From Clostridia bacterium (GTDB taxonomy: Bacteria > Bacillota > Peptococcia > DRI-13 > SM3-B62): 64,000 bases of DNA. Numbering within the stretch: position 1 is the first letter of the stretch; every line of letters begins with the position of its first letter. A model generated the notes under the pieces. The model saw only the letters and a program-made list of their open reading frames with translations, ran no database searches and was not told where the DNA came from. The stretch is taken from contig JAHDSQ010000031.1 of NCBI GenBank assembly GCA_018432615.1, forward strand, positions 6,009-70,008, read 5' to 3'. Of this stretch, positions 4,773 to 64,000 are shown piece by piece. The position numbers and the translations under genes are program-made.

Positions 4773-5534
4773 ATGAATTATAAGGAATTTATGAAAGCAG
4801 TTGATGAAATACTATCTAATATGACTGAAGTGGAAAAAACGGAATGGATACATAATGTGGCTCGAACTACGAAAGAGCATAAGAGATTTACGTTCTTAAA
4901 TTCTTTAAAAGAAGAACCGGTTTATATGCCGCTTATTGCAAAAAATGAAGTAGAGGAATGGTGTAGGAAAATAGAGAATCAGGAAATATATTTTGAAGCC
5001 AGCAGTTATGAAATTTATGGAGCAAGCTATTGGGACACCGACTATGCATATGAGTACGCCGATAGTTTTGAAATAGGGAAGGAGCTTTCCAGAGCATTTC
5101 AGATAGCAGAGGATTTGCTGTTTCAAAAAGAATATCAGCAAGCATCAGTGTTATATGAGTGGCTTTGCAGTTTATCATTCCCAACATTGGACAGCGATAT
5201 AGAGGAATGGGATGAATTGGATTTGGAGAGTTTGGTAGAAGAAAGACTGGTAAGCTTGAATTTAAAGCAGATTGCCTTGAACTTGATGTATGCAAAATAT
5301 CAGGTTGCTGCGGATGAGGAAAGGGTAGCTGCATTATACCGATATTTATCGTGGAATATGTGTAAGAACATAAAAGTAGAAGAAATGTTTACCGTAGGAC
5401 CGGAAGAACTTAAAGGAATAGGCACATTTATGGAGGAGTGGATTTCTTTTCTAAAAAATACAGCTGGCGATCGGGCAGGGGGGGCTATTGTCAGAAGCAT
5501 GTATTTATCAAGGAGATATCAACTGCTTATCTAA
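4773..5534 (+). CDS. Hypothetical protein, N-terminal part of a gene split by a frameshift at a G7 run
   Basis: The ORF track gives 4749..5534. The ATG at 4773 (MNYKEFMKAVDEIL) follows an AAGGGG Shine-Dalgarno-like site. It sits directly downstream of the primase-helicase gene (their ends overlap). No domain recognised. Confidence 0.5.
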   Translation: MNYKEFMKAVDEILSNMTEVEKTEWIHNVARTTKEHKRFTFLNSLKEEPVYMPLIAKNEVEEWCRKIENQEIYFEASSYEIYGASYWDTDYAYEYADSFEIGKELSRAFQIAEDLLFQKEYQQASVLYEWLCSLSFPTLDSDIEEWDELDLESLVEERLVSLNLKQIALNLMYAKYQVAADEERVAALYRYLSWNMCKNIKVEEMFTVGPEELKGIGTFMEEWISFLKNTAGDRAGGAIVRSMYLSRRYQLLI

Positions 5535-44341: not shown

Positions 44342-44647
44342 ATGATGATGATGTCCGAGCTTGAAAGGTTCACTCAAGCACTTCAAGGTGATAAGGAGCT
44401 GGTGGAAGAACTGAAGTCTAGAGGAAACGATCTGGAAGAGATTGTCCGTTTCGCTAATTCCAAAGGATATAATTTTTCACTGCAGGAGTTGGTTACTGCA
44501 GCGGAAGAAAACGAAACCCTGTCCGAGGAGGAACTGGAGAGTGTAGCGGGTGGGTTTTTGACTTGCCTGGCCGGTGTTTCTTTTCAGATAGGAGATGGGA
44601 CCGGTCTTACGATTGCGGCCAAGGCCAAGGCTTTGGCGGTACTGTAA
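44342..44647 (+). CDS. Nif11-like leader RiPP precursor 2 (core FLTCLAGVSFQIGDGTGLTIAAKAKALAVL, 30 aa)
   Basis: The leader ...GNDLEEIVRFANSKGYNFSLQEL...LSEEELESVAGG is paralogous to precursor 1. There are four consecutive ATGs after GGAGG, and the true start is probably 44348 or 44351. Confidence 0.85.
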   Translation: MMMMSELERFTQALQGDKELVEELKSRGNDLEEIVRFANSKGYNFSLQELVTAAEENETLSEEELESVAGGFLTCLAGVSFQIGDGTGLTIAAKAKALAVL

Positions 44648-44679
44648 AAACTATAAAAGCGGGGAAAGGACAGCGAAAT

Positions 44680-44952
44680 ATGGTTATAAAAGAAATTAAG
44701 CGCTTTAATGAAGCTATACGTCACGACGAAGAACTTCAAAACCGGATCAAGGTCATTGGAGCGAATTTGGAAGAGATTGTCCGTTTCGCCAACCAAAAGG
44801 GATTCGATTTCACGGTAGATGATCTTAAAAAAGCACAAGACGGGGATATTGAGTTGTGCGATGAAGAATTAGAGTCTGTAGCGGGCGGAATCGTTGGTGC
44901 AATTGTGGCGCAGACGATAACAGTTGTCGGACTTGCTATAGTTTGCAATTAA
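44680..44952 (+). CDS. Nif11-like leader RiPP precursor 3 (core IVGAIVAQTITVVGLAIVCN, 20 aa)
   Basis: The ORF track starts at 44563 and overlaps precursor 2. The in-frame ATG at 44680 (MVIKEIKRFNEAI...) follows GGAAAGGA and aligns with the other two leaders. The leader ends CDEELESVAGG. Confidence 0.8.
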   Translation: MVIKEIKRFNEAIRHDEELQNRIKVIGANLEEIVRFANQKGFDFTVDDLKKAQDGDIELCDEELESVAGGIVGAIVAQTITVVGLAIVCN

Positions 44953-44973
44953 CAGGGTTACCGGGGGAGGTTA

Positions 44974-46407
44974 ATGGCGTTGAGCAGCTCACTGCTTTAT
45001 CAGGATTATATAAAAGGTACGAGCCCCGACGAATTAAAAATCATTGCCAATATCAAACGCTTTTTTGAGTGTATGACCGGTGATCCGGAGTTTCGTGCCG
45101 AGGTGGAAAGTAATATGTCCGGATGCGGACCGCTCTTGGAGTCAAGGGGCGTTTTTGGTGTAGACCCTACCCAGTTAATGGCGTTGTTTTCCAGGGGATC
45201 ATCGGAAGCCGAGCCTTCGGAGTCTGATTTGCAGGACAAGCCCCAGGGGCTGCTGTGGTACCGCTGGTGCAAGACGCATGAAGAATTGCGCCGGGCATGG
45301 AGAAAGCGCAGTGACGGTACACCCAATAAACGCTTTAATCAGTGGCACCGTCGCCAGGTGAACCGCTGCGGCAGTCAGCTGGGTAATTTAACAAACGAGC
45401 AATTAATCCATGCTACCGTTGTTTTTGAATTAACCCAGGGGTGTTCTCTCCAGTGCCCATTTTGCGGCCTGGCAGCCGAACCGCTAAAAAAGGTGTTTCC
45501 ATATACGAAGGAGAACGCCAGGCTGTGGCGGGAGGTGCTGGATGTGTCCGTTAAGCACCTGGGAGATACGGTAGGTACCGGAGTTTGCTACTGGGCGACT
45601 GATCCGACGGATAATCCGGATTATTTGAAGTTTGTGGCCGATTATGGTCAAAAGACGGGTTTTTACCCCCAGACCACAACCTCCGCACCCCTAAGAAAGC
45701 TTCAATGGACCCAGGACTTACTGGGATTCCGACGGCAACATAATACCTCTGTGGATCGCTTTTCAGTGCTTTCCCTTGATGGTCTGCGCCGTATTCATAA
45801 GACGTTTAGCGCGGAAGAGCTGTTATTTACCCAATTGGTTCTGCAGTATATTGATGTCATGAAAAAGGCCATGGCTCGTTCCGGGCGTAATCGACATAGT
45901 GAGGTTGAGCAAGAAGGGCTTGAGACTTTCAAGGATCATACTATCGCCTGTGTAACCGGTTACCTGATAAATATGGCCAAAGGCACGGTACGGCTAATCA
46001 GTCCGTGTCCTCCTTCGGAGATTGCGCCCCTAGGGTATCTCGTCCATACGGAAGGAAGATTCTCTAATGCCGGGGAGCTGGATGAGTTTATCGCCGAAAC
46101 CATGGAAAATTGTATGCCCGAGCATTGCGGGTCTGAAGATATCTTGTCCTTCCGTTGTGACTTGCAGTACGGGGTGTTGGCTAACGGCTTTCAGCTATCC
46201 AATGAATACAAGTCCCACAAGGTAGAGGGTAAACCCTATCTGATTAAGCTGGGAGGACTTATTTCAGGAGGGGATTTGACGTTTTCGCAAGTACTGGAGG
46301 AGATGTCAAAAGAGAGTGCCGATATCTTAGCGGTGATTACCACCATTCAGAAACTGTTTTCCCAAGGATTATTGGCTGACAAGACGGCTTGCGGCGGGAG
46401 GGTTTAG
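44974..46407 (+). CDS. Radical SAM RiPP maturase (Nif11-class; candidate PoyD-like epimerase)
   Basis: A single CxxxCxxC motif (GCSLQCPFCG; Cys codons at 45442, 45454 and 45463) follows a ~150-aa N-terminal extension. It starts 22 nt after precursor 3. The epimerase assignment is inference. Confidence 0.6.
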   Translation: MALSSSLLYQDYIKGTSPDELKIIANIKRFFECMTGDPEFRAEVESNMSGCGPLLESRGVFGVDPTQLMALFSRGSSEAEPSESDLQDKPQGLLWYRWCKTHEELRRAWRKRSDGTPNKRFNQWHRRQVNRCGSQLGNLTNEQLIHATVVFELTQGCSLQCPFCGLAAEPLKKVFPYTKENARLWREVLDVSVKHLGDTVGTGVCYWATDPTDNPDYLKFVADYGQKTGFYPQTTTSAPLRKLQWTQDLLGFRRQHNTSVDRFSVLSLDGLRRIHKTFSAEELLFTQLVLQYIDVMKKAMARSGRNRHSEVEQEGLETFKDHTIACVTGYLINMAKGTVRLISPCPPSEIAPLGYLVHTEGRFSNAGELDEFIAETMENCMPEHCGSEDILSFRCDLQYGVLANGFQLSNEYKSHKVEGKPYLIKLGGLISGGDLTFSQVLEEMSKESADILAVITTIQKLFSQGLLADKTACGGRV

Positions 46408-46410
46408 GTT

Positions 46411-48387
46411 ATGAGTTTAAATAACAAAACCGTTGCCCTGCCCTTTACGTCTGCGGAGGTGTGCCTGGTAAGTATGCCTTACCATAACCCGCATTTGCCG
46501 TCATTAGCCTTGGGCTTGCTACAGGCGGCCTTAATGGCAGAAGGAATCGAAACGAGAAGCGTTTACGCCAACCTCTTGTTTAACGAGCAGTTAGGACATC
46601 CTCTCTATAACCGGCATCACGTTCCTGATCCCAGGTTGCCTTTGGCAGAGTGGTCTTTTTCACCCCTTGCTTTTCCGGGGTTTGACGCCGATGAGGGAAG
46701 GTTTATCAAAGCGACTTATCCCTTGTTAGGCAGAATAAGACGGCAGACTATAGAAGCCTACCGTGAAGAACTTCGCTTTGTACGCCGCCAAGCGGAAGTA
46801 TTTATTAGTGATCTGGCGGAGAAAATCCTCAGTCTGTCGCCACGCATCGTGGGCTGTACATCAAGTCTGGCCCAGAAAGTGCCTTCCTTGGCCTTGTTGC
46901 GGAAAATCCGTGAGCTTGACCCAAAAGTAGTTACTTTAATGGGAGGTGCGGATTGTGAGACAGTGATGGGTCTTGCGGCTCATCAGCATTTCACCTGGCT
47001 TGACTATATCGTGTCAGGGGAAGGGGAAGATTTAATCGTTCCTTTGGTAAACAGTATCTTCGAGTTCAACCGAGAGGTTCCGCCTGACAGGCTGTCCAAA
47101 GGGGTATTTGCTCCTTGTCACAGGGATAGCGGATACCTTGAGATAAAAGAACAGGGAGAGGACAGCTATCGAGCGGTGGCGGAGTCCTTTGGGAGGCAAC
47201 GTCTCCCGCTCTATCAGGACTATTTTGACACATTGGCGCTACTGCCTACCCTGAGCGGTTTAATCCGGCCAAGCCTGCCTATCCAGGCCTCAAGAGGGTG
47301 CTGGTATGGAAAGTGCAAATTTTGCGGTTTGAATGCCCCGGAAATTCCCTACCGCTCACGCCCGTCTGAAGACGTACTTTCTGAAATGGATGAGCTTAAC
47401 GACCGACACGGTGTGACACATTTTGAGTTTCTGGATAACGTCCTTGCTAAGGGGCATATTGATGATTTATTGCCTAAACTTGCGGATAGGGGAGCCCCTT
47501 ATAAGTTGTTTTATGAAATCCGTTCGGATTTGTCGAAAAAGCAAATTGCATCCCTGCGGGCGGCGGGGGTCGTCATTTGCCAACCCGGGATAGAAAGCCT
47601 GCATAGCGAGGCTTTAAGAGCGATGAAAAAAGGGGTTACAAGCTGGCAGAATATCCAGACGTTGAAATGGTGCCGCCAGTATGGCATCAAGGCTAAATGG
47701 TCTATCATACACGATCTTCCGGGGGATCAGGACCACTGGTACCGGGAGATGGCGGAACTTGTTCCCCTGCTGGCTCATTTAAGCGAGCCCATGGGAATGC
47801 TGGAGGTTCAGTATCAACGCTACAGCCATTATTTTGACCACGCTGATGAGTATGGTCTAAAACTGGAACCCCTGTCATTGGACTCGCTGATTTATCCACT
47901 ATCTGAGGAAGTTATCAAGAATCTTTCCTATACACTGGACGACCGGTTCAGTGCCGGGGTTAGAGATAATCCCGGATTAGCTATATTATTTGCTCGTCCG
48001 GGACTGCGGAATTTGAAGAAGGCTGTTATCCGGTGGATGATGGGGGCTGATAATCGGAACGGGCCCATGTTGAGCATGAAAGTGGCTGACGACAAAATAG
48101 TCATCAGTGATTCCCGTTCTGTGGCTACAGCCTCTTCATTTCAGCTTGACGGAGCCGAAAGGGAGATATATCTTCTGTGTGATGAGGCCAGACCGGAGGA
48201 GCAGGTGAGACGGCTCCTGTTGGATAAGGGATATAACGAGCAGACTGTGGATACAGGTATCCACAGTCTGCTGGAAAAGAAAGTGATGCTTCGGGTTGAC
48301 CGACGCTTACTGGCCTTAGCCTTAGAGGAGCCTGTTTTGGAATATATCTCCCCGGATCAGAACCCTATGGGATGGGTGAGTATCTAG
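46411..48387 (+). CDS. B12-binding-domain radical SAM enzyme (RiPP maturation rSAM, TIGR03975-like; candidate C-methyltransferase)
   Basis: The N-terminus VCLVSMPYHNPHLPSLALGLLQAAL is typical of the cobalamin-binding-domain rSAM group found next to Nif11/NHLP precursors. The cluster motif is RGCWYGKCKFCG (Cx4Cx2C as read; Cys codons at 47299, 47314 and 47323). Confidence 0.7.
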   Translation: MSLNNKTVALPFTSAEVCLVSMPYHNPHLPSLALGLLQAALMAEGIETRSVYANLLFNEQLGHPLYNRHHVPDPRLPLAEWSFSPLAFPGFDADEGRFIKATYPLLGRIRRQTIEAYREELRFVRRQAEVFISDLAEKILSLSPRIVGCTSSLAQKVPSLALLRKIRELDPKVVTLMGGADCETVMGLAAHQHFTWLDYIVSGEGEDLIVPLVNSIFEFNREVPPDRLSKGVFAPCHRDSGYLEIKEQGEDSYRAVAESFGRQRLPLYQDYFDTLALLPTLSGLIRPSLPIQASRGCWYGKCKFCGLNAPEIPYRSRPSEDVLSEMDELNDRHGVTHFEFLDNVLAKGHIDDLLPKLADRGAPYKLFYEIRSDLSKKQIASLRAAGVVICQPGIESLHSEALRAMKKGVTSWQNIQTLKWCRQYGIKAKWSIIHDLPGDQDHWYREMAELVPLLAHLSEPMGMLEVQYQRYSHYFDHADEYGLKLEPLSLDSLIYPLSEEVIKNLSYTLDDRFSAGVRDNPGLAILFARPGLRNLKKAVIRWMMGADNRNGPMLSMKVADDKIVISDSRSVATASSFQLDGAEREIYLLCDEARPEEQVRRLLLDKGYNEQTVDTGIHSLLEKKVMLRVDRRLLALALEEPVLEYISPDQNPMGWVSI

Positions 48388-52656: not shown

Positions 52657-54000
52657 ATGACGGAAAACAAGATTTTCAGAAAAATATCCCTGGATCGGTT
52701 ATCTTCCCCCGAAGAATTGGACCAGCGCCTAACTGTCATTTCACCCACAGGCTGGGTAGCGTTGTTTGCGGTGGGTATCTTAATTTTTGCCACCTTGGTG
52801 TGGGGTGTTTTCGGGAGGATTTCCGATAAGGCAATGGGTAGCGGAATTATTATCTCCGGCGGGGGTATTACCGGTTTGGTTCACCATGCCACCGGTCAGA
52901 TTAGCGATGTCAGCGTCCGTGACGGCGATTATGTCGGCAAGGGTCAGGTGATGGCACGTCTGGAGCAGACCCAGCTTATCGCGGATATTAATAAAAACAG
53001 AGAAGACCTGGCTGCGGTAAAAGCCATTGATTTGGATAGTCTGGAATTGAATGACAGCACGCGCAATTTTAATGTGTATAGCAGGTTTGGGGAGATTTAC
53101 AAGGGTTATCTGACGGCCCAGGCCAATTTGAATACCCAGACAAAGTATTACGAGGCGGAAAAAGCCAAAGCCGAGAACGAACTGGAAAAGGCCGGAATGC
53201 AATACGAGGCTGCTTTGGATAAATACAACAATTATAAAATTTTGTATGAACATGGTGCTGTTTCCAAAGACGAACTGGATGAGGCAGAGCGGGAAATGCT
53301 TAACTCCGAATCTTCCTACAATACCGTGAAGTACCATTTGAATGAACTGCCGCTGGCCCAGCTTAAGGAGGCGGAAACAGCCTTTGAAGCTCAGCGACAG
53401 TTGCTGAAGGACAATATCATCGCTTCTGTGATAGATTTGGAAAACACCATTCAAAAACAGCAAAATGAACTCCTAAGTAATAATGAGATAATAGCCGAGG
53501 TTTCCGGACGGGTCTTGGAAATGCAGGTGCAAAAAGGTGATATTTATCAAGCAGGAGAGGTCGTTTGCACGATAGCGGAAGAAGGTGAGCAAATCGATAC
53601 CCTGGAGGCTGTTATTTATGTACCGGCGGAGAAGGGCAAAAGAATTAGGCCCGGGATGGAAGTAAATATATCCCCGACTACGGTGCAGAAGGAAGAAAGC
53701 GGCTTTATGCTGGGCAACGTGGTAGAGGTTTCCGAGTACCCGGCCAGTGTCCAGGGAATGATGCTGACACTGGGCAATGCGGACTTGGCCAGACAGTTGT
53801 CGGGGAACAGTTCTCCCATCGAGGTCAGGGTAAAATTGATCAGGGACAGCAATACAGTCAGCGGATATAAGTGGTCGACGCCTAAGGGGCCGTCGATTGT
53901 CATAGACGGCGGGACGTTCTGCGCCGGGGAAGTAAAGATTGAGAAAAAACGACCGATCAGTATGGTCATACCTTTTATCAAGAAGCTTTTGCCTATCTGA
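52657..54000 (+). CDS. HlyD-family NHLP/Nif11 bacteriocin-system secretion protein (TIGR03794-like)
   Basis: The N-terminus IFRKISLDRLSSPEELDQRLTVISPTGWVALFAV is the signature of this subfamily as I recall it. It also has a coiled-coil middle and a beta-barrel C-terminus. Confidence 0.8.
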   Translation: MTENKIFRKISLDRLSSPEELDQRLTVISPTGWVALFAVGILIFATLVWGVFGRISDKAMGSGIIISGGGITGLVHHATGQISDVSVRDGDYVGKGQVMARLEQTQLIADINKNREDLAAVKAIDLDSLELNDSTRNFNVYSRFGEIYKGYLTAQANLNTQTKYYEAEKAKAENELEKAGMQYEAALDKYNNYKILYEHGAVSKDELDEAEREMLNSESSYNTVKYHLNELPLAQLKEAETAFEAQRQLLKDNIIASVIDLENTIQKQQNELLSNNEIIAEVSGRVLEMQVQKGDIYQAGEVVCTIAEEGEQIDTLEAVIYVPAEKGKRIRPGMEVNISPTTVQKEESGFMLGNVVEVSEYPASVQGMMLTLGNADLARQLSGNSSPIEVRVKLIRDSNTVSGYKWSTPKGPSIVIDGGTFCAGEVKIEKKRPISMVIPFIKKLLPI

Positions 54001-54052
54001 TAGATGCTAAAAAACCCGAACCAATGTATTGTGCTTTCAAGATTCTGAGGTG

Positions 54053-56218
54053 ATGAGCTTGCAAAGAAAAGGAAAAATGAAAAGGGTTCCCTCCATTTTG
54101 CAGATGGAAGCTGTGGAATGCGGCGCGGCTTCACTGGCAATGATTTTTGCTTATTATAAAAAATATCTGCCTTTAGAGCAGTTGCGTGTGGACTGTGGGG
54201 TCACTCGCGATGGGGTTAAGGCCAACAGTATCTTAAAAGCTGCCCGGAGGTATGGGTTTGTTGCCAAGGGTTTCCGGAAGGAGCCCGAAGGTTTGAGAGA
54301 GATGCCTTTACCGGCTATCATCCATTGGAATTTTAATCACTTCGTGGTCTTGGAAGGATTCGGGAAAGACGGGGTTTACATTAATGATCCGGGCTCCGGA
54401 CCCAGGACTATTGATTACGAAGAGTTTGACATGGCCTTTACCGGCGTGATTCTGACCTTTGAACCGGGGGAAGAATTTCAGCCCAGCGGGACAAAGAATA
54501 GTTTTATCGTTTCCTTGCGGCAGTGGTTGTCCGGTTCCCATACCGCAGTTATTTATCTGGTTCTGATTGGTCTCATTATGGTTATTCCGGGCTTGCTGGT
54601 ACCGGCTTTCAGTAAAATTTTTATCGATGACATCCTACTCGGGGGCAAAGGTGATTGGTTGAAACCTCTGCTGTGGGCCATGGGAGCGGCGGCCATTTTA
54701 CAGGGGGTATTGGTTGCCCTTCAGCAGTATTACCTGCTGAAAATGGAGACCAAAACCGCCATCAGTAATGCCGGGAAATTCTTTTGGCACATCTTCCGTT
54801 TGCCGGTGGAATTTTTTCAGCAGCGTTCAGCCGGAGATGTTTCCAACCGCCTGCAGAGCAACGACCAGGTAGCCGCGTTTTTATCCCGGGAGTTAGCCGA
54901 AACGGCGATAGGTTTTTTGACCATAATATTCTACTTTGTAGTCATGTTGCAGTTCAGCGTTATTTTGGCCTTGATTGCCCTGCTGATTGCCGCTTTGAAT
55001 ATCTGCTACCTCTTTTATTCTTCCAGTAAAATAGAGACCTTAAATGCCAAGCTTTTGCAGGATCAGGGCAAGGTAATGGGTTTTTCCATGTCCGGCTTAT
55101 TTATAATGGAAACTTTGAAAGCTTCCGCCTCAGAGTCGGACTTTTTTGCCAAATGGTCGGGATACCACGCCAAAGAAATCAATTCTCAACAAAAATTGGG
55201 CAAAACAGCGCAGGTGTTGTTACAATTGCCTGATTTTCTGTCGGAGTTTGCTAATGTTATTGTCTTGTTTGTGGGAGGGTTGACGATTATCAGCGGGAAT
55301 CTGACCATCGGCTCCCTGATTGCTTTCCAGGGACTGTTGGGTAGCTTTATGCAGCCGGTTAACGACTTGACACAGATGGGTATGAGGGTGAAAGAAGTCC
55401 AGGGTGATATTAACCGTTTGGAAGACGTTTTCAAGTACAAGTTGGATGAAAATGTTATTCGAGAAACAGAGACTGAGCATGAAGAGGATACTTGTCGGAA
55501 ACTGGAAGGCGACATAGAAATAAAGGATTTGTCTTTTGGCTATAGTCCATGGGATCCGCCCCTGATTGAGAACTTTAGCCTGAGACTCAAATCAGGTTCC
55601 CGGGTGGCCCTGGTGGGCGGATCCGGCAGTGGCAAGAGCACCGTTGCCAAACTAATCAGTGGAATTTATCTTCCCTGGTCGGGGGAAATACTTTTTGATG
55701 GCAAACGCCGGGAGGATTTACCTCGCGAGGTGATAGTCAACTCGATGGCCGTTGTGGATCAGGATATCACCATGTTTGACGGAACCATCAGGGAAAACCT
55801 TACCATGTGGGATGCCACCATCTCGGAATTAGATTTGATCCGGGCAGCCAAAGACGCCTGTATTCATGATGACATTACCTTACGGGACAAGGGGTATGAC
55901 CATAAGGTCAGTGAGGGTGGCAGTAACTTCAGCGGCGGCCAGAGGCAAAGACTGGAGATTGCCCGGGCCCTAACCGGTAATCCCTCCGTTTTGATTCTGG
56001 ATGAAGCAACCAGCGCCCTTGATGTCCATACGGAGAAACTGGTTGATGAGAACATCCGCCGTCGGGGCTGTACCTGTATAATTGTGGCCCATCGCCTGAG
56101 CACTATCCGGGATTGTGATGAAATCATTGTTCTGGAAAAGGGTAAGATTGTGGAACGCGGCACCCATGATCAGTTGAAAAATACCGGGGGGCTATATGCC
56201 CAGCTAATCAGCGCTTAA
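54053..56218 (+). CDS. Bacteriocin export ABC transporter with an N-terminal C39 double-glycine peptidase domain (TIGR03796-like)
   Basis: C39 motifs QMEAVECGAASLAMI (Cys), HWNFNHFVVL (His) and YINDPGSG (Asp). Six TM segments, Walker A GGSGSGKST, signature FSGGQRQR and Walker B LILDEATS. The start is ambiguous (TTG 54029, ATG 54053, ATG 54077). Confidence 0.9.
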   Translation: MSLQRKGKMKRVPSILQMEAVECGAASLAMIFAYYKKYLPLEQLRVDCGVTRDGVKANSILKAARRYGFVAKGFRKEPEGLREMPLPAIIHWNFNHFVVLEGFGKDGVYINDPGSGPRTIDYEEFDMAFTGVILTFEPGEEFQPSGTKNSFIVSLRQWLSGSHTAVIYLVLIGLIMVIPGLLVPAFSKIFIDDILLGGKGDWLKPLLWAMGAAAILQGVLVALQQYYLLKMETKTAISNAGKFFWHIFRLPVEFFQQRSAGDVSNRLQSNDQVAAFLSRELAETAIGFLTIIFYFVVMLQFSVILALIALLIAALNICYLFYSSSKIETLNAKLLQDQGKVMGFSMSGLFIMETLKASASESDFFAKWSGYHAKEINSQQKLGKTAQVLLQLPDFLSEFANVIVLFVGGLTIISGNLTIGSLIAFQGLLGSFMQPVNDLTQMGMRVKEVQGDINRLEDVFKYKLDENVIRETETEHEEDTCRKLEGDIEIKDLSFGYSPWDPPLIENFSLRLKSGSRVALVGGSGSGKSTVAKLISGIYLPWSGEILFDGKRREDLPREVIVNSMAVVDQDITMFDGTIRENLTMWDATISELDLIRAAKDACIHDDITLRDKGYDHKVSEGGSNFSGGQRQRLEIARALTGNPSVLILDEATSALDVHTEKLVDENIRRRGCTCIIVAHRLSTIRDCDEIIVLEKGKIVERGTHDQLKNTGGLYAQLISA

Positions 56219-56251: not shown

Positions 56252-58933
56252 TTGGGTTTCATTGACCGTTTAGCATCTGTCACAATCAAAACAGAAGGAA
56301 ACAAACCATTGCTTTTAACCGACTCTAAAGTCTGGCTGGTTAAAGAAGGCAAGGTCGATTTGTTTATCACCCGGACAGTCAACGAGGAAAGCGTAGGCAG
56401 CAGAAACTATCTGCTCACAGTTGACAAGGGGGAGATTTTCTGCGGACTAAAACCCATAAAAGCAGAAGATGAAGATTACGCCCTTCTGGCCGTGGGTCGT
56501 ACCGATACCTCGCTTTTGGAATTTAACCGTCATGAATTCACCCGGACAAAAACAAAGCCGGAACGTGATGAGATGGTCGGCTTCTTCAAGGAATGGATTA
56601 AAAAGTGGCAGGACTTGGGGCTTAAGGAAAACGGGGAATTTGATTGGGACAAAGATTTCGAGCCGGAAAAGCTGATGGAATACAATAGCCTTCTTTTTGC
56701 CGAGGGGCTCACAAGAATGCTTGAGGCCAGAAAAGAAGAGGTTTTGAGGATAAAAGCAAAACGTGCCCAGGATGAAGCCCGCATGAGTAGCGGATTGAAA
56801 AGACTGGCCGATACCTTAAACATTGGGGTACAAGTAAGTCAGGAAGCAGAAGAATACCACAGCGATAATCTGCTCTTTAAGGCTTGTGTGGCTGTGGGAA
56901 AGGCCAAGAAAATAACTATTCTTCCTTCCCATGGTCTGCGAAAAAACAAGCCTGATTCAAAAGACCTCTTGGGGGATATAGCCAGGGCCTCCCAAATTCG
57001 AATCAGAAAGATCATTTTAAAGGAAAACTGGTGGAAAGAAGATAACGGAGCCCTCCTTGTTTACAGGGAGGCCGACAAGCAGCCTTTGGCCCTTTTACCC
57101 GTATCTCCTTCCAAATATAAATTATATGACCCGGCTGAAGGCAGCCAGGTTATGGTGGATCAGGCGGTGGCGGATACGATAGATGCCCAAGCCTATACCT
57201 TCTATCGCCCGTTGCCGGCTAAGGCCATTGGGTATAAGGACCTTCTCAAGTATTTGGCGGATGGGATTTGGAAGTCGGACGTGATTACCGTATTGGTGAT
57301 GGGCTCACTGGGGGGGTTGTTGGGAGCTTTGACACCGGTAGTAACAGGAATTATTTTCGACAGCGTAATTCCTGACGGGGAAAGACTGCTATTAAGTCAA
57401 ATCGGCTTTTTACTCATTGCTATCGCTATTTCCTCCTTTGCCTTTGATTTAACCAGGTCATTCGCCTTGCACAGGATAGAAGGACGAACGGAAAGCGACT
57501 TGCAAGCTGCGGTTTGGGATCGTCTCTTGAGCCTGCCGGTACCTTTTTTTAAAGACTACACAGCAGGGGAGTTGGCCGGTCGTGCTATGGGTATCAGTCA
57601 AATCCGAAGTATCCTGTCGGGTGCGGCAGTAAATTCCATTATCTCGGGAATCTTCGCGATATTTTATTTTATCCTCTTGTTTTATTATAGCTGGATATTG
57701 GCCTTGATTGCTACGGCTATCGTAGCCGTCAATATGGGGGTATCCCTCTTATTCGGCTATCTGCAAATACGCTATGAACGTCAGCTGATCGATCTGAATA
57801 ACAGCCTGGCAGGAAAGATATTCGGCCTCTTAACCGGTATCAATAAAATCAAAACATCCGGATCGGAAAAGCGGGCTTTTCATAACTGGGCCACGGACTT
57901 CGGTCAGGTTAGGGACGTTACATACCGTAAAGAGACCCTGGGCAACAGAATGGCCGTTTTTAATTCTACGATAAATATCATTGCTACCGGGATTATCTTT
58001 TTCGCCTTAATAAGGGTCAGCGGAATCAACTTAGGCGCCGGTAAGTTTATTGCCTTTAACGCGGCCTTTTCAAGCTATTTGGGTGCCGTACTGCAAATAT
58101 CAGGCGTGGTTCTCCAACTCAATATCGTTAAACCCTTATATGAAAGGGTCAAACCGATTTTGGTGACCTTGCCCGAATTTGACGTTGATAAGGCCGATCC
58201 CGGGGAACTCGAAGGTAGTATTGAAGTGAAGCATGTGAACTTCCGCTACTATCCGGAGGGGCCTTTGGTTCTGAATGATATTGTTTTGGAAATCAAAAAG
58301 GGAGATTATGTGGGCATCGTCGGGACTTCCGGCAGTGGGAAGTCTACTCTGTTCAGATTGTTGCTCGGCTTTGAAAAAGCGGAGTCAGGTCAGATTTTTT
58401 ATGACCAGCATGACTTGGAGAAAGTGGATATCCGTTCTATTCGTCGTCAGTTAGGGGTTGTGTTACAAAGCGGTCAGTTGATGCATGGCAGTATTTTCGA
58501 CAATATTGTTGCTGCAGGTATCGGTTTGACCATGGATGATGCCTGGGAAGCGGCACGGATGGCTGGGATGGAAGAAGATATCAAGGGTATGCCTATGGGC
58601 ATGCATACCATGGTCAGCACAGACGGAGGCACACTTTCCGGCGGACAGCGGCAACGGCTGCTTATTGCCCGGGCTATTATCTCCAAGCCGAAAATCATTT
58701 ATTTCGACGAGGCTACCAGTGCTTTGGACAACAGAACCCAAAAAATTGTCAGTGAAAGCCTGGGCGGTTTAGGTGCTACCAGAGTCGTTATTGCCCATCG
58801 TCTGAGCACGATTGCTAACTGCAATAGGATTATCGTTATGGATAAAGGGCGGATTGTAGAGCAAGGCAATTATCAGGAACTGCTTGAGCAAGGCGGCCTC
58901 TTTACCCAACTGGTGAAGAGACAGCTAGCCTAA
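56252..58933 (+). CDS. Second bacteriocin export ABC permease/ATPase with an N-terminal cyclic-nucleotide-binding-like domain (TIGR03797-like)
   Basis: The N-terminal beta-barrel-like region (VWLVKEGKVDLFITR...GEIFCGL) is followed by a ~200-aa linker and a 6-TM domain. Walker A GTSGSGKST, signature LSGGQRQR and Walker B IYFDEATS. Confidence 0.85.
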   Translation: MGFIDRLASVTIKTEGNKPLLLTDSKVWLVKEGKVDLFITRTVNEESVGSRNYLLTVDKGEIFCGLKPIKAEDEDYALLAVGRTDTSLLEFNRHEFTRTKTKPERDEMVGFFKEWIKKWQDLGLKENGEFDWDKDFEPEKLMEYNSLLFAEGLTRMLEARKEEVLRIKAKRAQDEARMSSGLKRLADTLNIGVQVSQEAEEYHSDNLLFKACVAVGKAKKITILPSHGLRKNKPDSKDLLGDIARASQIRIRKIILKENWWKEDNGALLVYREADKQPLALLPVSPSKYKLYDPAEGSQVMVDQAVADTIDAQAYTFYRPLPAKAIGYKDLLKYLADGIWKSDVITVLVMGSLGGLLGALTPVVTGIIFDSVIPDGERLLLSQIGFLLIAIAISSFAFDLTRSFALHRIEGRTESDLQAAVWDRLLSLPVPFFKDYTAGELAGRAMGISQIRSILSGAAVNSIISGIFAIFYFILLFYYSWILALIATAIVAVNMGVSLLFGYLQIRYERQLIDLNNSLAGKIFGLLTGINKIKTSGSEKRAFHNWATDFGQVRDVTYRKETLGNRMAVFNSTINIIATGIIFFALIRVSGINLGAGKFIAFNAAFSSYLGAVLQISGVVLQLNIVKPLYERVKPILVTLPEFDVDKADPGELEGSIEVKHVNFRYYPEGPLVLNDIVLEIKKGDYVGIVGTSGSGKSTLFRLLLGFEKAESGQIFYDQHDLEKVDIRSIRRQLGVVLQSGQLMHGSIFDNIVAAGIGLTMDDAWEAARMAGMEEDIKGMPMGMHTMVSTDGGTLSGGQRQRLLIARAIISKPKIIYFDEATSALDNRTQKIVSESLGGLGATRVVIAHRLSTIANCNRIIVMDKGRIVEQGNYQELLEQGGLFTQLVKRQLA

Positions 58934-58969: not shown

Positions 58970-59515
58970 TTGAATAAAATCGGCAGTCCTTTGGTTGTGG
59001 CGGAAGAATCCGACAGTATTTCCAAGCTGTATCGTGACTACTATCCAAAGCTGTATAAATATACCCTTTACCGGGTAGGCGATTCAGCCACGGCAGAAGA
59101 CTTGGTCAGTGAGGTGTTTACCAAAATGCTGGCCAAATATCACACATATAACCCGGAGCGGGGTAAGTTCAGCACATGGCTTTTTACCATAGCGAATAAT
59201 ACAATTATTAATTACCATAATAAAAATCGCCATTATACTTCCATTGAGCCAAAACAGGCAGATCATAGGAATCCGCCGGAGGATGCGGTTATGAAGAAAG
59301 AATTAAAACATATGCTGGTTCAGGCAGTCATGAAGCTGGATGGGCGCCAGCGAAGCATAATTGCCCTTAAATTCGGTGCTTGTGAGACCAACCGGGAGAT
59401 TGCCCGGATGCTGAATCTGACGGAAAGCAATGTGGGAACGATCCTCTATCGAGCATTACAGCAATTACGGGATATTTTAAAGGAACAAGGCGTAGTGTAT
59501 GATTCGGAAATATAA
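58970..59515 (+). CDS. ECF-type sigma-70 family sigma factor
   Basis: Region 2 (YRDYYPKLYKYTLYRVGDSATAEDLVSEVF...FSTWLFTIANNTIINYH) and region 4 (RQRSIIALKF..ETNREIARMLNLTESNVGTILYRALQQLR). TTG start 6 nt after GAGGTGAG, 36 nt after the ABC gene. Confidence 0.85.
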   Translation: MNKIGSPLVVAEESDSISKLYRDYYPKLYKYTLYRVGDSATAEDLVSEVFTKMLAKYHTYNPERGKFSTWLFTIANNTIINYHNKNRHYTSIEPKQADHRNPPEDAVMKKELKHMLVQAVMKLDGRQRSIIALKFGACETNREIARMLNLTESNVGTILYRALQQLRDILKEQGVVYDSEI

Positions 59516-59530
59516 GCTGAGGTGAGGCCA

Positions 59531-59773
59531 ATGAAGGAAAAACCATCAAAACCGTTTCTGACGGCTGTGGATAAGATTGTATCCGGCAGGCGGCTGAAAC
59601 CGTCAGAATATGAGCAACACGACAAAGAAGATCAAGAACTGCTTTCTCTTGCGCAGGTGCTGGCGGAGGGGGTTTCAGCTGTGCAAAACGATGAATTGGC
59701 AGACGATGAGCTGGATATGGTGGCGGGGGGCGTAAACCCCAACGCATTACCCAACAAAAAAGATAAGCCTTAA
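59531..59773 (+). CDS. Small soluble protein in the anti-sigma position, carrying a double-glycine leader-type motif (..DDELDMVAGG / VNPNALPNKKDKP)
   Basis: It starts 6-15 nt after the sigma stop (GTG 59522 or ATG 59531 after GAGGTGAGG). There is no TM segment and no zinc-finger Cys/His. Residues just before GG match the (D/E)(D/E)xL(D/E)xVAGG ends of the six precursors in this locus. Confidence 0.55.
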   Translation: MKEKPSKPFLTAVDKIVSGRRLKPSEYEQHDKEDQELLSLAQVLAEGVSAVQNDELADDELDMVAGGVNPNALPNKKDKP

Positions 59774-59893: not shown

Positions 59894-60928
59894 GTGTCTG
59901 CTATTATGCCCGGATTAAAGTTATTAAAGGAAAATCATTTTACGCATACCGAGTCCTTATCCCGGGAGCAGATGCCTCTTGCGGACGAGCTTTTTGTGCA
60001 AGCCTGGGAAGATTATATCCGAAACATACCCGGTTTGGGCGTCTTGGGAGCCTTGCAGCAAGGACTGGTCCAGCTTTGTTTCCCAATCCGGGAGGGAATG
60101 AGTACCAATCAAGATTACCTGCAGGCAACCCGCCGGGGGGCCAATCCGACAGAATTTGAAAGTGCTGAGGGTATCAGACTTGAGAATTCGGAGGGGCTGA
60201 AGGTTTATTTATATCAGACTCCGGCAGGCCGAATTCCTGTCTTGGAAACTAAAAGCCGCCGGGATTTTGAATCCCTAATCCGGGCTATATGTTACAAAAA
60301 TGAACCGATTGCTATCCCCGCGTCCCTGGGAGCCTTTATGATCAAAGGATACAACAATTGGGACAGGGTAGCCCGGTATAAGCGAAAGTGCGGACAGTCC
60401 TTTGACTTTAATTATATGAAAGCCAACCGGGAGCTATATCAAGACACCTTCCTCATTTTGACCGATGCCGAATACAGCGGTGTAGCGGCAGAGATGTTGG
60501 GGATGGCGAAAGAGGAATGGCGCAGGCTGTCCTTAATAATCCGCAGGGAGCATGAAGCCACCCATTATTTTACCCAGCGCTTTCTTGGCTCCGCCAAGAA
60601 TCATCCTCTTGATGAGTTTATCGCTGATTATATGGGTATAGTAGCCGCCCTCGGCTACTATCGAGCAGACTGGTTTCTTTGTTTTATGGGACTGGAGGAA
60701 TACCCCGCTTTCCGAGCGGGAGGTCGGTTGACCAATTACCTGGAAAACAAAGAATTATCTCAGAGGGAATTTGACGAATTAAAGAGTTGTCTCAAAAGAG
60801 CGGCTGAAAACGTCGAAAGGCTTGGCACAGAGAACCCCGATATTTATTCTCCCCAAGGCAGGTATGAAATGCTGCTGCGTTTGTCCCAAAGTAATTTGTT
60901 AGCTTTGGCTGAAAACCTTTTTACATAA
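59894..60928 (+). CDS. Hypothetical protein with an HExxH motif (possible metallopeptidase)
   Basis: 344 aa, with REHEATHYF (HEATH) about 110 aa from the C-terminus and an acidic residue downstream (HPLDEFIADY). No signal peptide or TM segment. Family not recognised. Confidence 0.4.
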   Translation: MSAIMPGLKLLKENHFTHTESLSREQMPLADELFVQAWEDYIRNIPGLGVLGALQQGLVQLCFPIREGMSTNQDYLQATRRGANPTEFESAEGIRLENSEGLKVYLYQTPAGRIPVLETKSRRDFESLIRAICYKNEPIAIPASLGAFMIKGYNNWDRVARYKRKCGQSFDFNYMKANRELYQDTFLILTDAEYSGVAAEMLGMAKEEWRRLSLIIRREHEATHYFTQRFLGSAKNHPLDEFIADYMGIVAALGYYRADWFLCFMGLEEYPAFRAGGRLTNYLENKELSQREFDELKSCLKRAAENVERLGTENPDIYSPQGRYEMLLRLSQSNLLALAENLFT

Positions 60929-60984: not shown

Positions 60985-61020
60985 CGTGTGAAGTTTGAAA
61001 AGCATGTGAACCTATGAAAA
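60985..61020 (+). promoter_or_regulatory. TGTGA direct-repeat motif upstream of precursor 4
   Basis: CGTGTGAAGTTTGAAAAGCATGTGAACCTATGAAAA. The TTGAAA(A)GCATGT part also occurs at 43962..43975, upstream of precursor 1. Confidence 0.3.
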
Positions 61021-61037
61021 AGAAAGGATGGATCGAA

Positions 61038-61394
61038 GTGGCAACAAATTTTGAATTATTGCAGGCAAAACTGGAGGCAGACCCGGCTTTTGGGAAAAAA
61101 CTGATTGAACTGGAAACGGCAGAGGAAGCCCAAAGAATCTTAAAAGCAGAAGGAATGGAATTTACAGTGGAAGAGCTCAACTCTTTTGCTGAGGCGGTAA
61201 ACAAATACGGGGACAGCGAGGGCGAGCTTTCCGACGAAGCCCTGGAGGGCGTAGCCGGCGGTGTTGCTCTGGCCACCGTTGCGGCAGCGGCGACACTTTT
61301 CTCAATTGGCGATAGTATGACCGGCGGCCATGTCAGGAGAGCAGTTTCCAGCGGGGTCAGACGGGCGGCCAGGCGTATTTTCAGAGGTTGGTAA
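61038..61394 (+). CDS. Long Nif11-like leader RiPP precursor 4 (43-aa core VALATVAAAATLFSIGDSMTGGHVRRAVSSGVRRAARRIFRGW)
   Basis: Leader ATNFELLQAKLEADPAFGKKLIELETAEEAQRILKAEGMEFTVEEL...ELSDEALEGVAGG. The GTG at 61038 sits 6-8 nt after AAAGGATGG. The track start ATG 61014 lies inside a conserved upstream motif that reads GTG in the sister copy. Confidence 0.8.
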   Translation: MATNFELLQAKLEADPAFGKKLIELETAEEAQRILKAEGMEFTVEELNSFAEAVNKYGDSEGELSDEALEGVAGGVALATVAAAATLFSIGDSMTGGHVRRAVSSGVRRAARRIFRGW

Positions 61395-61413: not shown

Positions 61414-61431
61414 CATGTGAATCTGTGAAAA
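61414..61431 (+). promoter_or_regulatory. TGTGA direct-repeat motif upstream of precursor 5
   Basis: CATGTGAATCTGTGAAAA. Confidence 0.3.
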
Positions 61432-61448
61432 AGAAAGGATGGATTGAA

Positions 61449-61805
61449 ATGGCGACAAGTTTTGAATTATTACAGGCGAAACTGGAGGCAGACCCGGCTT
61501 TTGGGAAAAAACTCGTTGAACTGGAAACGGCAGAGGAAGCCCAAAGCTTCTTAAAAGCAGAAGGCTTGGAATTCACGGTGGAAGAGCTTAAGTCTTTTGC
61601 TGAGGCGGTAAACAAATACGGGGACAGCGATGGCGAGCTTTCCGAAGAAGCCTTAGAAGGCGTAGCCGGCGGTGTTGCCCTTGCCACCGTTGCAGCGACG
61701 GCGACGATAGTGTCGGTTACTGATGATATGACCGGCGGTCATGTCAGAAGAACTGTTTCCAGTGGTGTCAGGCGGGCGGCCAGGCGCGTTTTCAGAGGGT
61801 GGTAA
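61449..61805 (+). CDS. Long Nif11-like leader RiPP precursor 5 (core VALATVAATATIVSVTDDMTGGHVRRTVSSGVRRAARRVFRGW)
   Basis: Tandem paralogue of precursor 4. The ATG at 61449 follows the same RBS; the track start is GTG 61425. Confidence 0.8.
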   Translation: MATSFELLQAKLEADPAFGKKLVELETAEEAQSFLKAEGLEFTVEELKSFAEAVNKYGDSDGELSEEALEGVAGGVALATVAATATIVSVTDDMTGGHVRRTVSSGVRRAARRVFRGW

Positions 61806-61841: not shown

Positions 61842-61904
61842 ATTTGAATTTTCGCGGATTCAGTATGATTCGAATAGTGAAAAATGAGGGTTGGAGGGGA
61901 AAAT

Positions 61905-62279
61905 ATGGAAAACCAAATTTTATCGACCTTAGAGTTGAATGAATTAATCGGCAAGAAAGCGGCTGAAGACGAAGCATTTCGACTTGCTTTGTTAAGCGAT
62001 CCCAAAGCGGCTTTGGAAAAGGAATTGGGAGTGGTGATTCCGGAAGATATTAAAATAGAGGTGCATGTGGAAAGCATGAAGTCCCTGCATCTGATTATAC
62101 CGCCTGCCAATACCGACGAACTGACGGATGATGATCTGGAATCGGTCGCCGGCGGTGCCGCCTCTTTTAGGCCGGATGTAATAATGATGTATGCCGTGCG
62201 TCCGCCTTCTGATTTCAAAAAAGGTGGCGGAACCGGGAGTCCGGCCTGGCGAGTAGCATTAGAAAAATTCAGAAAATGA
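61905..62279 (+). CDS. NHLP (nitrile-hydratase-like) leader RiPP precursor 6 (40-aa Cys-free core AASFRPDVIMMYAVRPPSDFKKGGGTGSPAWRVALEKFRK)
   Basis: The leader LIGKKAAEDEAFRLALLSDPKAALEKELGVVIPEDIKIEVHVESMKSLHLIIPP....LTDDDLESVAGG fits the NHLP pattern (TIGR03793 as I recall). The ATG at 61905 follows GGAGGGG; the track start at 61884 is less likely. Confidence 0.85.
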   Translation: MENQILSTLELNELIGKKAAEDEAFRLALLSDPKAALEKELGVVIPEDIKIEVHVESMKSLHLIIPPANTDELTDDDLESVAGGAASFRPDVIMMYAVRPPSDFKKGGGTGSPAWRVALEKFRK

Positions 62280-63823
62280 TAATCCAACGACCGATAACAG
62301 CAGTTTGGGAGATTACCATGGGTTGCAACATGCGCTGCAAACACTGCGGCTCTGCCTGCCATGACGTTCTCCCGGGAGAGTTGACGACAACAGAAGCCCT
62401 GCGGTTATGCGATGATATTGGCAAGCTTGGGATGAAGTGGATTACTTTATCCGGCGGTGAGCCGACCACCCGGAAAGACTGGCCGGACATTGCCGGAAGG
62501 TTGAAGGAGCGGGGTGTGGCTACCACTATAATTACCAATGGATGGCTCTTTGACGAGGTAATTCTGGAACAGGCAATTCAGGCCGGAGTCGCTACCATAG
62601 GCTTCAGCCTGGACGGCCTTCAGGAAACACACGATTTCATGCGCCGGGAGGGTTCTTACCAAAAGATTATGAAGGCTATTGAACTGTGCCTTAGCAGAAA
62701 CATGCACGCTACCGCCATTACCACGGTCAATAAAAAGAACCTGGGCGAGCTGGACAGGATAAAACAAGAATTGGCGGACAGAGGGGTCAAGGAATGGCAG
62801 GTTCAGATGGGTTGTCCCATGGGCAATATGGCTGAACACGACGATTTAGTCTTAGAGCCTACTGATATGGATACGATTATTGATTTGGCTTATCGGTGTA
62901 TGCAGGAGTCTTCGCTTAAAATCAACCTGGGTGACTGTGTCGGCTACTATAGTCTGCAAGAAATACAGATGGCCAAATACAGCCGGGAAAGCATCTATTG
63001 CCCTCAGTGTACTGCCGGAAAATATACCTTCGGTATCCTGCATAACGGGGATATTGTGGGATGTACTTCCATCAGGGATCCTGAGTTTACGGAAGGTAAT
63101 ATCAGGAAAACTCCCCTGAAAGAGATCTGGGAGAATCCGGACAGTTTCAGATGGAGCCGCACCATGAAAAAAGAAGACCTGCAGGGTTTTTGCGGAGTAT
63201 GTCGTTTTGCCGATGATTGCCTGGGCGGGTGTCCGAATTCCAGGTTAACCATGGGAGGCAGCATTTACGCAGAAAATCGTTACTGTTCTTATTTTCAGGC
63301 CGTTCAGAAAAGAATTCGCATCTTTGAAGAAATACAGGATTTCGACGAACTGGCGGCAATGGGCCGAAGCTTTACGGAAAAAGGATACTGGCAGTTGGCT
63401 GAAACCGCATTAAGCGTGGCCCTGGGCAGGCAAGGTGCGGATAGCGATTCTGGGCTTTTGAGCCATTATGGGTATGTGAATTTCAGGCTAGGTAATTATC
63501 ATGTTGCCCTGGAAGCAAACGAGAAGCTGTTGCAAAGAAGCCCTACTGATGTATACGGACTTAAAGGAAAAGGATTGTGCTTACTACGTATGGGTAAGAC
63601 GGAAGAGGGAATCGAACTGCTGAAAAGGGCTATGGCTTTGACGGATGAAAGCTTTATGGATCCCTATTATGATTTGGCTATTGCCTTGTCGGAAATAGGT
63701 CGTGAGAAGGAAGCAATGGCAGTTCTTGAAGAAGGCCGTAAGAAGTCGGAGGGCTTTGTGGACCAAAGCGAGGATTTGTATCAGAAGTTGGCGGATAGTG
63801 CTAAAAAAGCTGTGGGGGTTTAG
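62276..63823 (+). CDS. Radical SAM / SPASM-domain peptide maturase with a C-terminal TPR domain
   Basis: GCNMRCKHCG (CxxxCxxC) at the N-terminus. SPASM-type Cys set CPQC...GCTS...GFCGVCRFADDCLGGCPNS. The last ~170 aa are TPR-like (YWQLAETALSVAL..., NYHVALEANEKLLQ..., GKTEEGIELLKRAMAL...). Its start ATG overlaps the precursor stop (ATGA at 62276..62279). Confidence 0.85.
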   Translation: MIIQRPITAVWEITMGCNMRCKHCGSACHDVLPGELTTTEALRLCDDIGKLGMKWITLSGGEPTTRKDWPDIAGRLKERGVATTIITNGWLFDEVILEQAIQAGVATIGFSLDGLQETHDFMRREGSYQKIMKAIELCLSRNMHATAITTVNKKNLGELDRIKQELADRGVKEWQVQMGCPMGNMAEHDDLVLEPTDMDTIIDLAYRCMQESSLKINLGDCVGYYSLQEIQMAKYSRESIYCPQCTAGKYTFGILHNGDIVGCTSIRDPEFTEGNIRKTPLKEIWENPDSFRWSRTMKKEDLQGFCGVCRFADDCLGGCPNSRLTMGGSIYAENRYCSYFQAVQKRIRIFEEIQDFDELAAMGRSFTEKGYWQLAETALSVALGRQGADSDSGLLSHYGYVNFRLGNYHVALEANEKLLQRSPTDVYGLKGKGLCLLRMGKTEEGIELLKRAMALTDESFMDPYYDLAIALSEIGREKEAMAVLEEGRKKSEGFVDQSEDLYQKLADSAKKAVGV

Positions 63824-63824
63824 C

Positions 63825-64000
63825 ATGAGCAAGGCAAAGGAAAGACAGCCGGGGTTTAAAGACCTGCAGGATATTTTTAAGGAAATATCCCAAAAGGCGG
63901 CGGTGGACGGAGCATATCGGGAATTATGCCTGAAAGACGCTCAGGCCGCTATCCGGGAAGTAGCGGGGCAGGAGATAGAAATTCTTGAAGGGATTGTTTT
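63825..64000 (+). CDS. Further small ORF, possibly another NHLP-like leader peptide (3' end cut by the window)
   Basis: The ATG is 1 nt after the rSAM stop. MSKAKERQPGFKDLQDIFKEISQKAAVDGAYRELCLKDAQAAIREVAGQEIEILEGIV resembles the ..A..D..FR..LL.DP.AAI.E..G.EIPEG.. part of NHLP leaders. Confidence 0.45.
   Translation, partial: MSKAKERQPGFKDLQDIFKEISQKAAVDGAYRELCLKDAQAAIREVAGQEIEILEGIV

Follow-up and report, generated by a model that had tools for sequence, protein, structure and literature searches.

We analysed a stretch of 64,000 nucleotides from a Clostridia bacterium (assembly GCA_018432615.1, contig JAHDSQ010000031.1, positions 6,009-70,008 of the forward strand; hereafter the window), in which the gene of an NHLP-leader peptide precursor overlaps that of a radical S-adenosylmethionine (rSAM) SPASM enzyme carrying a C-terminal tetratricopeptide repeat (TPR) domain (62276..63823, + strand). 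The pair is most likely a binary spliceotide-type system, that is, one without a Y protein, located in a large proteusin-type cluster for several peptides that are made by ribosomes and modified after translation (RiPPs). Because of the homology of the enzyme and the conservation of the substrate motif, we consider it moderately probable that tyramine is excised at M11-Y12-A13 of the precursor core, leaving an alpha-keto-beta-methionine residue (-135.07 Da), and that cleavage after Gly-Gly and export follow. The system falls outside the spliceotide family in the strict sense on two counts, the score of the enzyme against the family model and the absence of a Tyr-Gly motif from the core, and is hence a variant of a spliceotide system.

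The original prediction had taken the mechanical open reading frame (ORF) at 61884..62279 (+) as the precursor. The ORF stands as a mechanical call, its start does not: the ATG at 61905 (MENQIL...) is the more likely one, because a GGAGGGG Shine-Dalgarno sequence at 61893-61899 lies 5 nt before it and homologous precursors start MExK(I/V)LSTLELN, in line with this position. The resulting NHLP-type leader of 84 residues (61905..62156, +), aligned with 13 homologues, ends in ...DDLESVAGG and matches TIGR03793 with 74.2 bits (trusted cutoff 50.9). It is followed by a 40-aa core, AASFRPDVIMMYAVRPPSDFKKGGGTGSPAWRVALEKFRK, and the stop codon (62157..62279, +; core codons 62157..62276). As had been read before, the core is free of Cys and holds five aromatic residues in F-R-P, Y-A-V, F-K-K, W-R-V and F-R-K contexts. 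The thioether chemistry of sactipeptides and ranthipeptides is rightly excluded because there is no Cys in the core, and the StsB and PapB models give the enzyme 118 of 625 and 69 of 340 bits. The TGA stop of the precursor (62277-79) and the ATG start of the enzyme (62276-78) share the previously noted ATGA at 62276-62279, and the identical 4-nt overlap is present in five related loci (L002, L005, L006, L012 and L077). The two genes are no chance ORFs and are kept together in many genomes. The proposal of a RiPP precursor and its maturase is borne out.

The catalytic part of the enzyme comprises residues 1-344 (62276..63307, +) and matches the radical SAM (PF04055, 88 bits) and SPASM (PF13186, 41 bits) families. 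Besides the CxxxCxxC motif (C17/C21/C24, nt 62324-62347) it has the full SPASM cysteine set, C245, C263, C306, C309, C315, C319 and C337 (nt 63008-63286), which is invariant over 40 homologues. Residues ~345-515, with the stop codon (63308..63823, +), form an all-helical solenoid with matches to TPR_12, TPR_2, TPR_14 and ANAPC3, the Pfam repeats covering residues ~360-492. In an AlphaFold2 model built with 40 homologues (predicted local distance difference test (pLDDT) 89.8, predicted template modelling score 0.84), helices 338-513 appear as a nine-helix TPR solenoid with pLDDT >90, in agreement with the C-terminal TPR region of ~170 residues described earlier. The model starts directly with a barrel strand at residues 8-12, and because of this the enzyme is judged to have no N-terminal RiPP recognition element (RRE), again as proposed. 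PqqE, CteB, SkfB, SuiB and anSME are its fold neighbours, and SkfB is the closest solved structure by sequence (55 bits); the sequence and fold searches of the Protein Data Bank returned generic rSAM-SPASM matches only, which do not discriminate between chemistries.

The enzyme belongs to a large family. In the protein database its relatives form at least 120 clusters at 90% identity, and the 120 best clusters are all full-length relatives with 48-100% identity to it. In species-representative genomes we collected 101 related loci (numbered from L001), which span Bacillota, Desulfobacterota, Bacteroidales, Myxococcota and others, and the TPR domain was found in about 64 of 79 of them. No curated NCBIfam model claims the enzyme. 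The two best of the 25 best matches on which the comparison drew are TIGR03913, a model of GDL-motif peptide rSAM/SPASM maturases (207.3 bits, trusted cutoff 591.75), and TIGR04103 (205.6 bits, trusted cutoff 725). The same two models rank best for PlpX, the prototype tyramine splicease, which the literature assigns to IPR026482 and which reaches 677 bits with TIGR04103 and then 322 bits with TIGR03913; by this comparison, TIGR04103 is the PlpX family model. The sequences of PlpX, PcpX, PlpA and PlpY were taken from the machine-read supplement of PMC9484694 and contain reading errors, which is why PlpX scores 677 and not above 725 bits. Furthermore, BLASTP aligns the window enzyme with PlpX at 31% identity over 354 aa (E 9e-40), and a hidden Markov model of the catalytic part of the TPR family scores 198 bits with PcpX and 179 bits with PlpX, as against 46-115 bits with other peptide rSAM-SPASM enzymes of the same or related clusters. 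As far as such scores can tell, PlpX and PcpX are the nearest characterised enzymes, nearer than other rSAM-SPASM enzymes. Grouping with a non-peptide SPASM family had been named as an outcome that would speak against a peptide maturase; in NCBIfam, the enzyme is instead closer to peptide-modifying SPASM enzymes than to sulfatase maturases.

The substrates provide the second line of evidence. We translated the ORF directly 5' of the enzyme gene in the 76 related loci having one and used ORFs more than 3 kb from the enzyme gene in related loci as background. YG is carried by 55 of the 76 upstream ORFs and Y[GA] by 58, and Y[GA]-x(1-3)-P reaches a density of 19.3 per 1000 aa in them as opposed to 0.35 in the background, an enrichment of about 56-fold. 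Precursors of close relatives (62-82% enzyme identity) have NHLP leaders, those of more distant relatives have double-glycine leaders of ~20 aa or are proteins of 180-415 aa, and all that is common to them family-wide is x-Y-G/A-x-(x)-P, seen as hydrophobic-Tyr-Gly-(Val/Ile/Leu/Tyr/Phe)-x-Pro and often in many repeats (for example AYGVRPP, PLYGIKP, VKYGVKPP and LKYGYPCG). XYG is the splice site described for spliceases and spliceotides, and the proven sites of PlpA are AVAAMYGVVFP and PIRPLYGLPI. Cores of the NHLP clade (hhh-x-Y-G-V-x-x-P-GG..W-x-W-P) align with PlpA AVAAMYGVVFPWDNEFPWPRWGG, their x-Y-G-V-x-x-P-GG..W-x-W-P being placed opposite MYGVVFPWDNEFPWPRWGG of PlpA. The window core aligns with PlpA AVAAMYGVVFPW..., and here M-Y-A-V-R-P comes to stand against A-Y-G-V-x-x-P of the relatives and M-Y-G-V-V-F-P of PlpA.

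In at least six distant loci (L020, L030, L039, L046, L049 and L079) the substrate protein has at its N-terminus a peptidase-inhibitor domain of the chagasin family, I42 (33-53 bits, Pfam cutoff 27.2), after which many xY[G/A/M]xP repeats follow, as in L079 9245-9979. Such proteins combine a folded protease inhibitor with a row of sites at which keto-amide warheads might form. Given that spliceotide keto-amides inhibit Ser and Cys proteases, the chagasin-fused substrates support both the assignment to splicing and a role in protease inhibition.

The predicted modification site of the window is M11-Y12-A13-V14-R15-P16 (62187..62204, +; M-Y-A at 62187-62195, the Tyr12 codon TAT at 62190-62192). 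The same M-Y-A-V-R-P is read in L081, a near-identical strain, and in L001, L082 and L083 (82, 81 and 76% enzyme identity), which together with the window make up a Tyr-Ala subclade. The cores of this subclade (76-100% rSAM identity) diverge nearly everywhere, and this segment and one later Trp are what they retain: Y12 and W31 are kept, F4, F20 and F38 are not. Because M-Y-A-V-R-P is kept amid divergent cores, the Tyr-Ala site is under selection and is no decayed Tyr-Gly site. Two enzyme positions, residues 180 (nt 62813-62815) and 308 (63197-63199), set the subclade apart from >80% of the other family members; L180C sits in Q-x-G-L-P-M-G-N and K308V inside the SPASM C-x-x-C, and no other otherwise-conserved position differs. 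Both residues are candidate specificity determinants, two substitutions being too few to interpret.

These data also bear on whether the enzyme and its neighbour belong together at all. The enzyme could act on the two upstream Nif11-leader peptides (61014 and 61425), or the Tyr-Ala precursor could be a decayed non-substrate: the cluster holds several precursors, Tyr-Ala deviates from the canonical site, and Tyr is lost in one paralogue in L003. Against this stand the conserved adjacency of the NHLP precursor with its start/stop overlap and the clear purifying selection on M-Y-A-V-R-P over four distinct sequences; the Nif11 peptides moreover have neither Tyr-Gly nor Tyr-Ala and travel with a DUF7005 protein in loci such as L004 and L006. 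We regard such a mispairing as very improbable. The L003 paralogue (9598-9975) is a second NHLP precursor copy, adjacent to the enzyme, that has lost the Tyr-Gly site (..IITNLVSHP..) and kept the leader and a GWKWP tail; it may be a non-substrate or a substrate of other enzymes only.

The original prediction had favoured cyclophane-type crosslinks. An enzyme forming C-C or C-O crosslinks on the five core aromatics, in the manner of triceptide, streptide or darobactin maturases, would suit an rSAM-SPASM protein acting on a Cys-free, aromatic-rich core, and the conserved Trp ~19 residues after the Tyr, the W-x-W-P of close relatives and the presence of SuiB among the fold neighbours all fit this idea. 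The conservation pattern, however, does not support it. Three of the five aromatics, F4, F20 and F38, are unconserved even at 76-82% enzyme identity, the family keeps x-Y-G/A-x-(x)-P, and distant members hold Y-G-x-P repeats in which a second aromatic partner is absent. The darobactin-type and Trp-Lys models score far under their cutoffs (DynA 68 of 450, WgkB 117 of 650 bits), and the nearest kin are PlpX and PcpX. These scores bear on the darobactin-type and Trp-Lys enzymes; the 25 best NCBIfam matches include no triceptide-enzyme model. The enzyme also starts without an N-terminal RRE, whereas the matched region of SuiB begins at about residue 123. As for the Trp residues, the same Trp-rich tail is present in PlpA, which is known only as spliced, and any Trp chemistry could come from the cluster's second rSAM-SPASM enzyme (L081 4210-5232). 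Altogether, crosslinking of the core by this enzyme appears improbable.

The main rival to splicing accepts the conserved Tyr as the target and assumes a different Tyr-directed radical reaction, such as C-alpha-C-beta cleavage releasing p-cresol without re-joining of the backbone, MftC-like oxidation with the neighbour residue, or epimerisation; the relaxed Y-[G/A/M/S] site would then reflect a mechanism other than that of PlpX. This possibility draws on the identity to PlpX of only 31%, on the match to the mycofactocin maturase model (123 bits, cutoff 265), on reviews noting the likeness of MftC and splicease chemistry, and on the residues other than Gly that follow Tyr in several clades: loci of Desulfoluna and Polyangia show Y-A-A-P repeats, L030 and L044 have Y-M-A-P repeats and L052 has Y-S. 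Weighing against tyramine splicing itself, the enzyme comes nowhere near the trusted cutoff of either related model (206 of 725 bits with TIGR04103, 207 of 592 with TIGR03913), the model of the cofactor enzyme AhbD still reaches 159 bits as compared with 206 for TIGR04103, a modest margin, and 31% identity does not fix the chemistry of a radical SAM enzyme. The X-Tyr-Gly splice motif, present at family level in the 55 upstream ORFs with YG, is replaced by Tyr-Ala in the window core, the L003 paralogue is without the Tyr, and the part assigned below to the TPR domain comes from comparative reasoning only. In favour of splicing over a different reaction, the hydrophobic-Y-G-V/I/L-x-x-P context equals that of proven splice substrates, Tyr is followed by Gly much more often than by any other residue, and a protease warhead fits the chagasin-fused substrates. 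We therefore think a Tyr-directed reaction other than splicing rather unlikely, while giving it appreciably more weight than crosslinking.

Tyramine splicing in the window could proceed as follows. The precursor would be made with its 84-aa NHLP leader, the rSAM gene being translationally coupled to it. The rSAM/SPASM enzyme would then bind the core and direct 5'-deoxyadenosyl radical chemistry at Tyr12 of M-Y-A-V-R-P. A tyramine equivalent (C8H9NO, -135.07 Da) would be cut out and the Tyr carbonyl joined to the Met11 carbonyl, giving an alpha-keto-beta-methionine residue followed by Ala, as the homology of the enzyme and the conserved motif suggest. In doing so, the TPR domain might stand in for PlpY or a leader helix by providing an element for docking or activation in cis, or it might grip the Pro-rich core. 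The gene content of the cluster predicts cleavage after Gly-Gly and export by a C39-ABC exporter; a VAGG leader end and an exporter of this type (TIGR03796, 1089 bits) are both present. The keto-amide would act as a warhead against Ser or Cys proteases, and the epimerase, the C-methyltransferase, the peptide arginase homologue and the second rSAM enzyme of the cluster may modify the product further.

The TPR domain had been proposed as an unusual leader-recognition device, and the evidence leans against this. Its invariant polar residues over the 40 homologues are Q373, N407, K430 and D466, and the conserved domain pairs with three unrelated N-terminal regions, namely NHLP leaders, GG leaders of ~20 aa and chagasin-domain proteins. 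Because one TPR type serves such unrelated regions, it is probably no reader of a particular leader; more likely it would give a constant docking or activating function, or grip the Pro-rich core. Relatives without the TPR domain (gut Lachnospiraceae, L070, L073, L080) still pair with a V-M-Y-G peptide. PlpX requires PlpY, whose site is taken by a leader helix in binary spliceases. Either element works when fused to the C-terminus of the enzyme, and spliceases without a Y protein are known.

A 91-aa ORF directly downstream (63825..64000, +, running off the window; complete in L081 at 2225-2500) was considered as a PlpY-like partner and rejected, its similarity to PlpY and PcpY being insignificant (E 0.4-0.7). 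It has no Pfam or NCBIfam match and corresponds to the detached C-terminal ~90 aa of a protein of ~440 aa in related clusters (L006, L007, L037, L051 and L077); the domain also stands alone in L001, L082 and L083.

More tentatively, the TPR-fused enzymes may constitute a distinct splicease type, which would recognise X-Tyr-[Gly/Ala/Met/Ser]-x-(x)-Pro sites, have the TPR domain in place of the Y protein or leader helix, and serve substrates with unrelated N-terminal regions with one polypeptide; the window would then hold a natural Tyr-Ala splicing system making alpha-keto-beta-Met-Ala warheads. This is a possibility to which we give less than even weight. Literature searches on splicease with TPR, on rSAM-SPASM-TPR, on TIGR03913 or the GDL motif and on chagasin with radical SAM found nothing relevant, their coverage not extending to Scott et al. 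2022 (Chem 8:2659). That survey, in which predicted spliceases numbering several hundred (939 according to a later count) were grouped into types, may already include TPR-fused enzymes.

If the assignment is true, the accepted splice sites would extend to Tyr-Ala and, in other members of the family, to Tyr-Met, the warhead would gain in diversity at P1', and a TPR-carrying splicease could be a single-component, leader-agnostic enzyme of the kind built artificially by PlpY or leader fusion. The chagasin-domain substrates point to protease inhibition as a role of the whole family. Should the chemistry differ from splicing, a radical reaction on Tyr that is new would be represented in a large family with a wide distribution among anaerobes. 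To our knowledge, backbone beta-amino acids and keto-amide warheads of ribosomal products arise by no known route other than tyramine splicing, which is in use for protein labelling and for the design of protease inhibitors.

The multi-RiPP cluster around the pair exceeds 20 kb and is of proteusin type in that precursors of both TIGR03793 and TIGR03798 occur alongside a PoyD-type rSAM epimerase. The window genes given here with coordinates are on the + strand. A MalT/LuxR-type regulator is followed by a Nif11 precursor, the epimerase, an rSAM C-methyltransferase and a TetR regulator, then by the HlyD, C39-ABC and ABC2 exporter genes, an ECF sigma factor, a DUF7005 protein, two further Nif11 precursors and finally the NHLP precursor with its enzyme. 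The first Nif11 precursor (44563-44952) adjoins the PoyD-type epimerase (44974..46407; TIGR04517, 445 bits, cutoff 325) and the RiPP C-methyltransferase (46411..48387; TIGR03975, 563 bits, cutoff 282), and 44563-48387 as a whole is a polytheonamide-like module; the epimerase may act on the NHLP precursor too. Export is represented by an HlyD-type secretion adaptor of the NHLP bacteriocin system (52657..54000; TIGR03794, 354 bits, cutoff 156), a C39-peptidase/ABC exporter, NHLM_micro_ABC1 (54029..56218; TIGR03796, cutoff 853; Peptidase_C39, 128 bits), which is predicted to cut the precursor behind GG and export the product, and a second ABC subunit of the NHLP bacteriocin exporter (56252..58933; TIGR03797, 921 bits, cutoff 709).

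Behind the ECF sigma factor (58970-59515) lies an 83-aa ORF (59522-59773) in which the C-terminus resembles a double-glycine leader with a tail of 13 aa behind it (...DELDMVAGG then VNPNALPNKKDKP); an 81-aa gene is found at the same place in L082 and L083, and the product might serve as an anti-sigma factor or as a signalling peptide. The DUF7005 protein (59894-60928; PF22541, 388 bits) has an HExxH motif (REHEATH) and is conserved beside Nif11 precursors ending in RW; a role as metalloenzyme or protease in that Nif11 pathway is possible. The two Nif11-leader precursors next to it (61014-61394 and 61425-61805) have a hydrophobic Ala/Val/Thr-rich core and an Arg-rich tail, ...RRxFRGW, and their relatives (L082 2126-2473, L083 2112-2471, L004-L007, L051 and L077) end in RSRW, RGRW or GRRW. 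The RW-terminated precursors co-occur with DUF7005 and a peptide arginase homologue, and they look like a separate, uncharacterised RiPP family within the same cluster. In L081, where the cluster continues past the window (2505-6377), there follow a peptide arginase homologue of the FlmR/OhkR family (277 bits, cutoff 350), a 244-aa protein, the second rSAM-SPASM enzyme, which has 340 aa, and a substrate-binding protein. From 6677 onward a Wadjet JetABCD system is present there. Defence genes also occupy the start of the window (96-4752, +), where a TOTE conflict-system protein with AEP primase, helicase and PLD nuclease domains (340 bits) accompanies an AlwI-type restriction endonuclease (422 bits).

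Compared with known systems, the cluster shares with those of the proteusins polytheonamide and landornamide the NHLP and Nif11 leaders, the PoyD-type epimerase, the rSAM C-methyltransferase, the peptide arginase homologue and the NHLM-type ABC/HlyD exporter; it differs by the splicease-like enzyme coupled to the NHLP precursor, by the uncharacterised DUF7005 protein and by the RW-terminated Nif11 peptides. With the enzymes of triceptides, streptide (SuiB/StrB) and darobactin/dynobactin (DarE/DynA) the enzyme has in common the general fold and an rSAM-SPASM chemistry presumed to act on aromatics of Cys-free peptides, whereas its substrates lack a conserved aromatic-x-x motif, its scores with the darobactin-type and Trp-Lys models are low and it has no N-terminal RRE. 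MftC is likewise an rSAM-SPASM enzyme and modifies a Tyr of a ribosomal peptide in several steps. It acts on a C-terminal Val-Tyr and requires the RRE protein MftB, and the score of the window enzyme stays well under the cutoff of its model.

The binary type II systems of Rheinheimera, RhaX/RhaA, RasX/RasA and RcsX/RcsA, resemble the window pair in having two components and no Y protein. In these systems the leader or an added helix is the activator, and its C-terminal fusion to the enzyme works; they are set apart by their LYG or MYG sites and, as far as the published descriptions go, by having no TPR domain. The type I spliceotide systems of Pleurocapsa, PlpXY/PlpA and PcpXY/PcpA, differ in several respects: they include a Y protein, PlpX has no counterpart of the ~170-aa C-terminal TPR domain, their site is Tyr-Gly in place of Tyr-Ala, the window enzyme remains at 206 of 725 bits with TIGR04103, and its host is an anaerobic member of Bacillota, not a cyanobacterium. 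Shared with these systems are 31% enzyme identity and the two NCBIfam models that rank best, the Nif11/NHLP type of leader with a GG end, a hydrophobic-Y-small-V-x-x-P site followed by a Trp/Pro-rich tail and, as in the plp cluster, a PoyD-type epimerase together with Nif11 and NHLP precursors.

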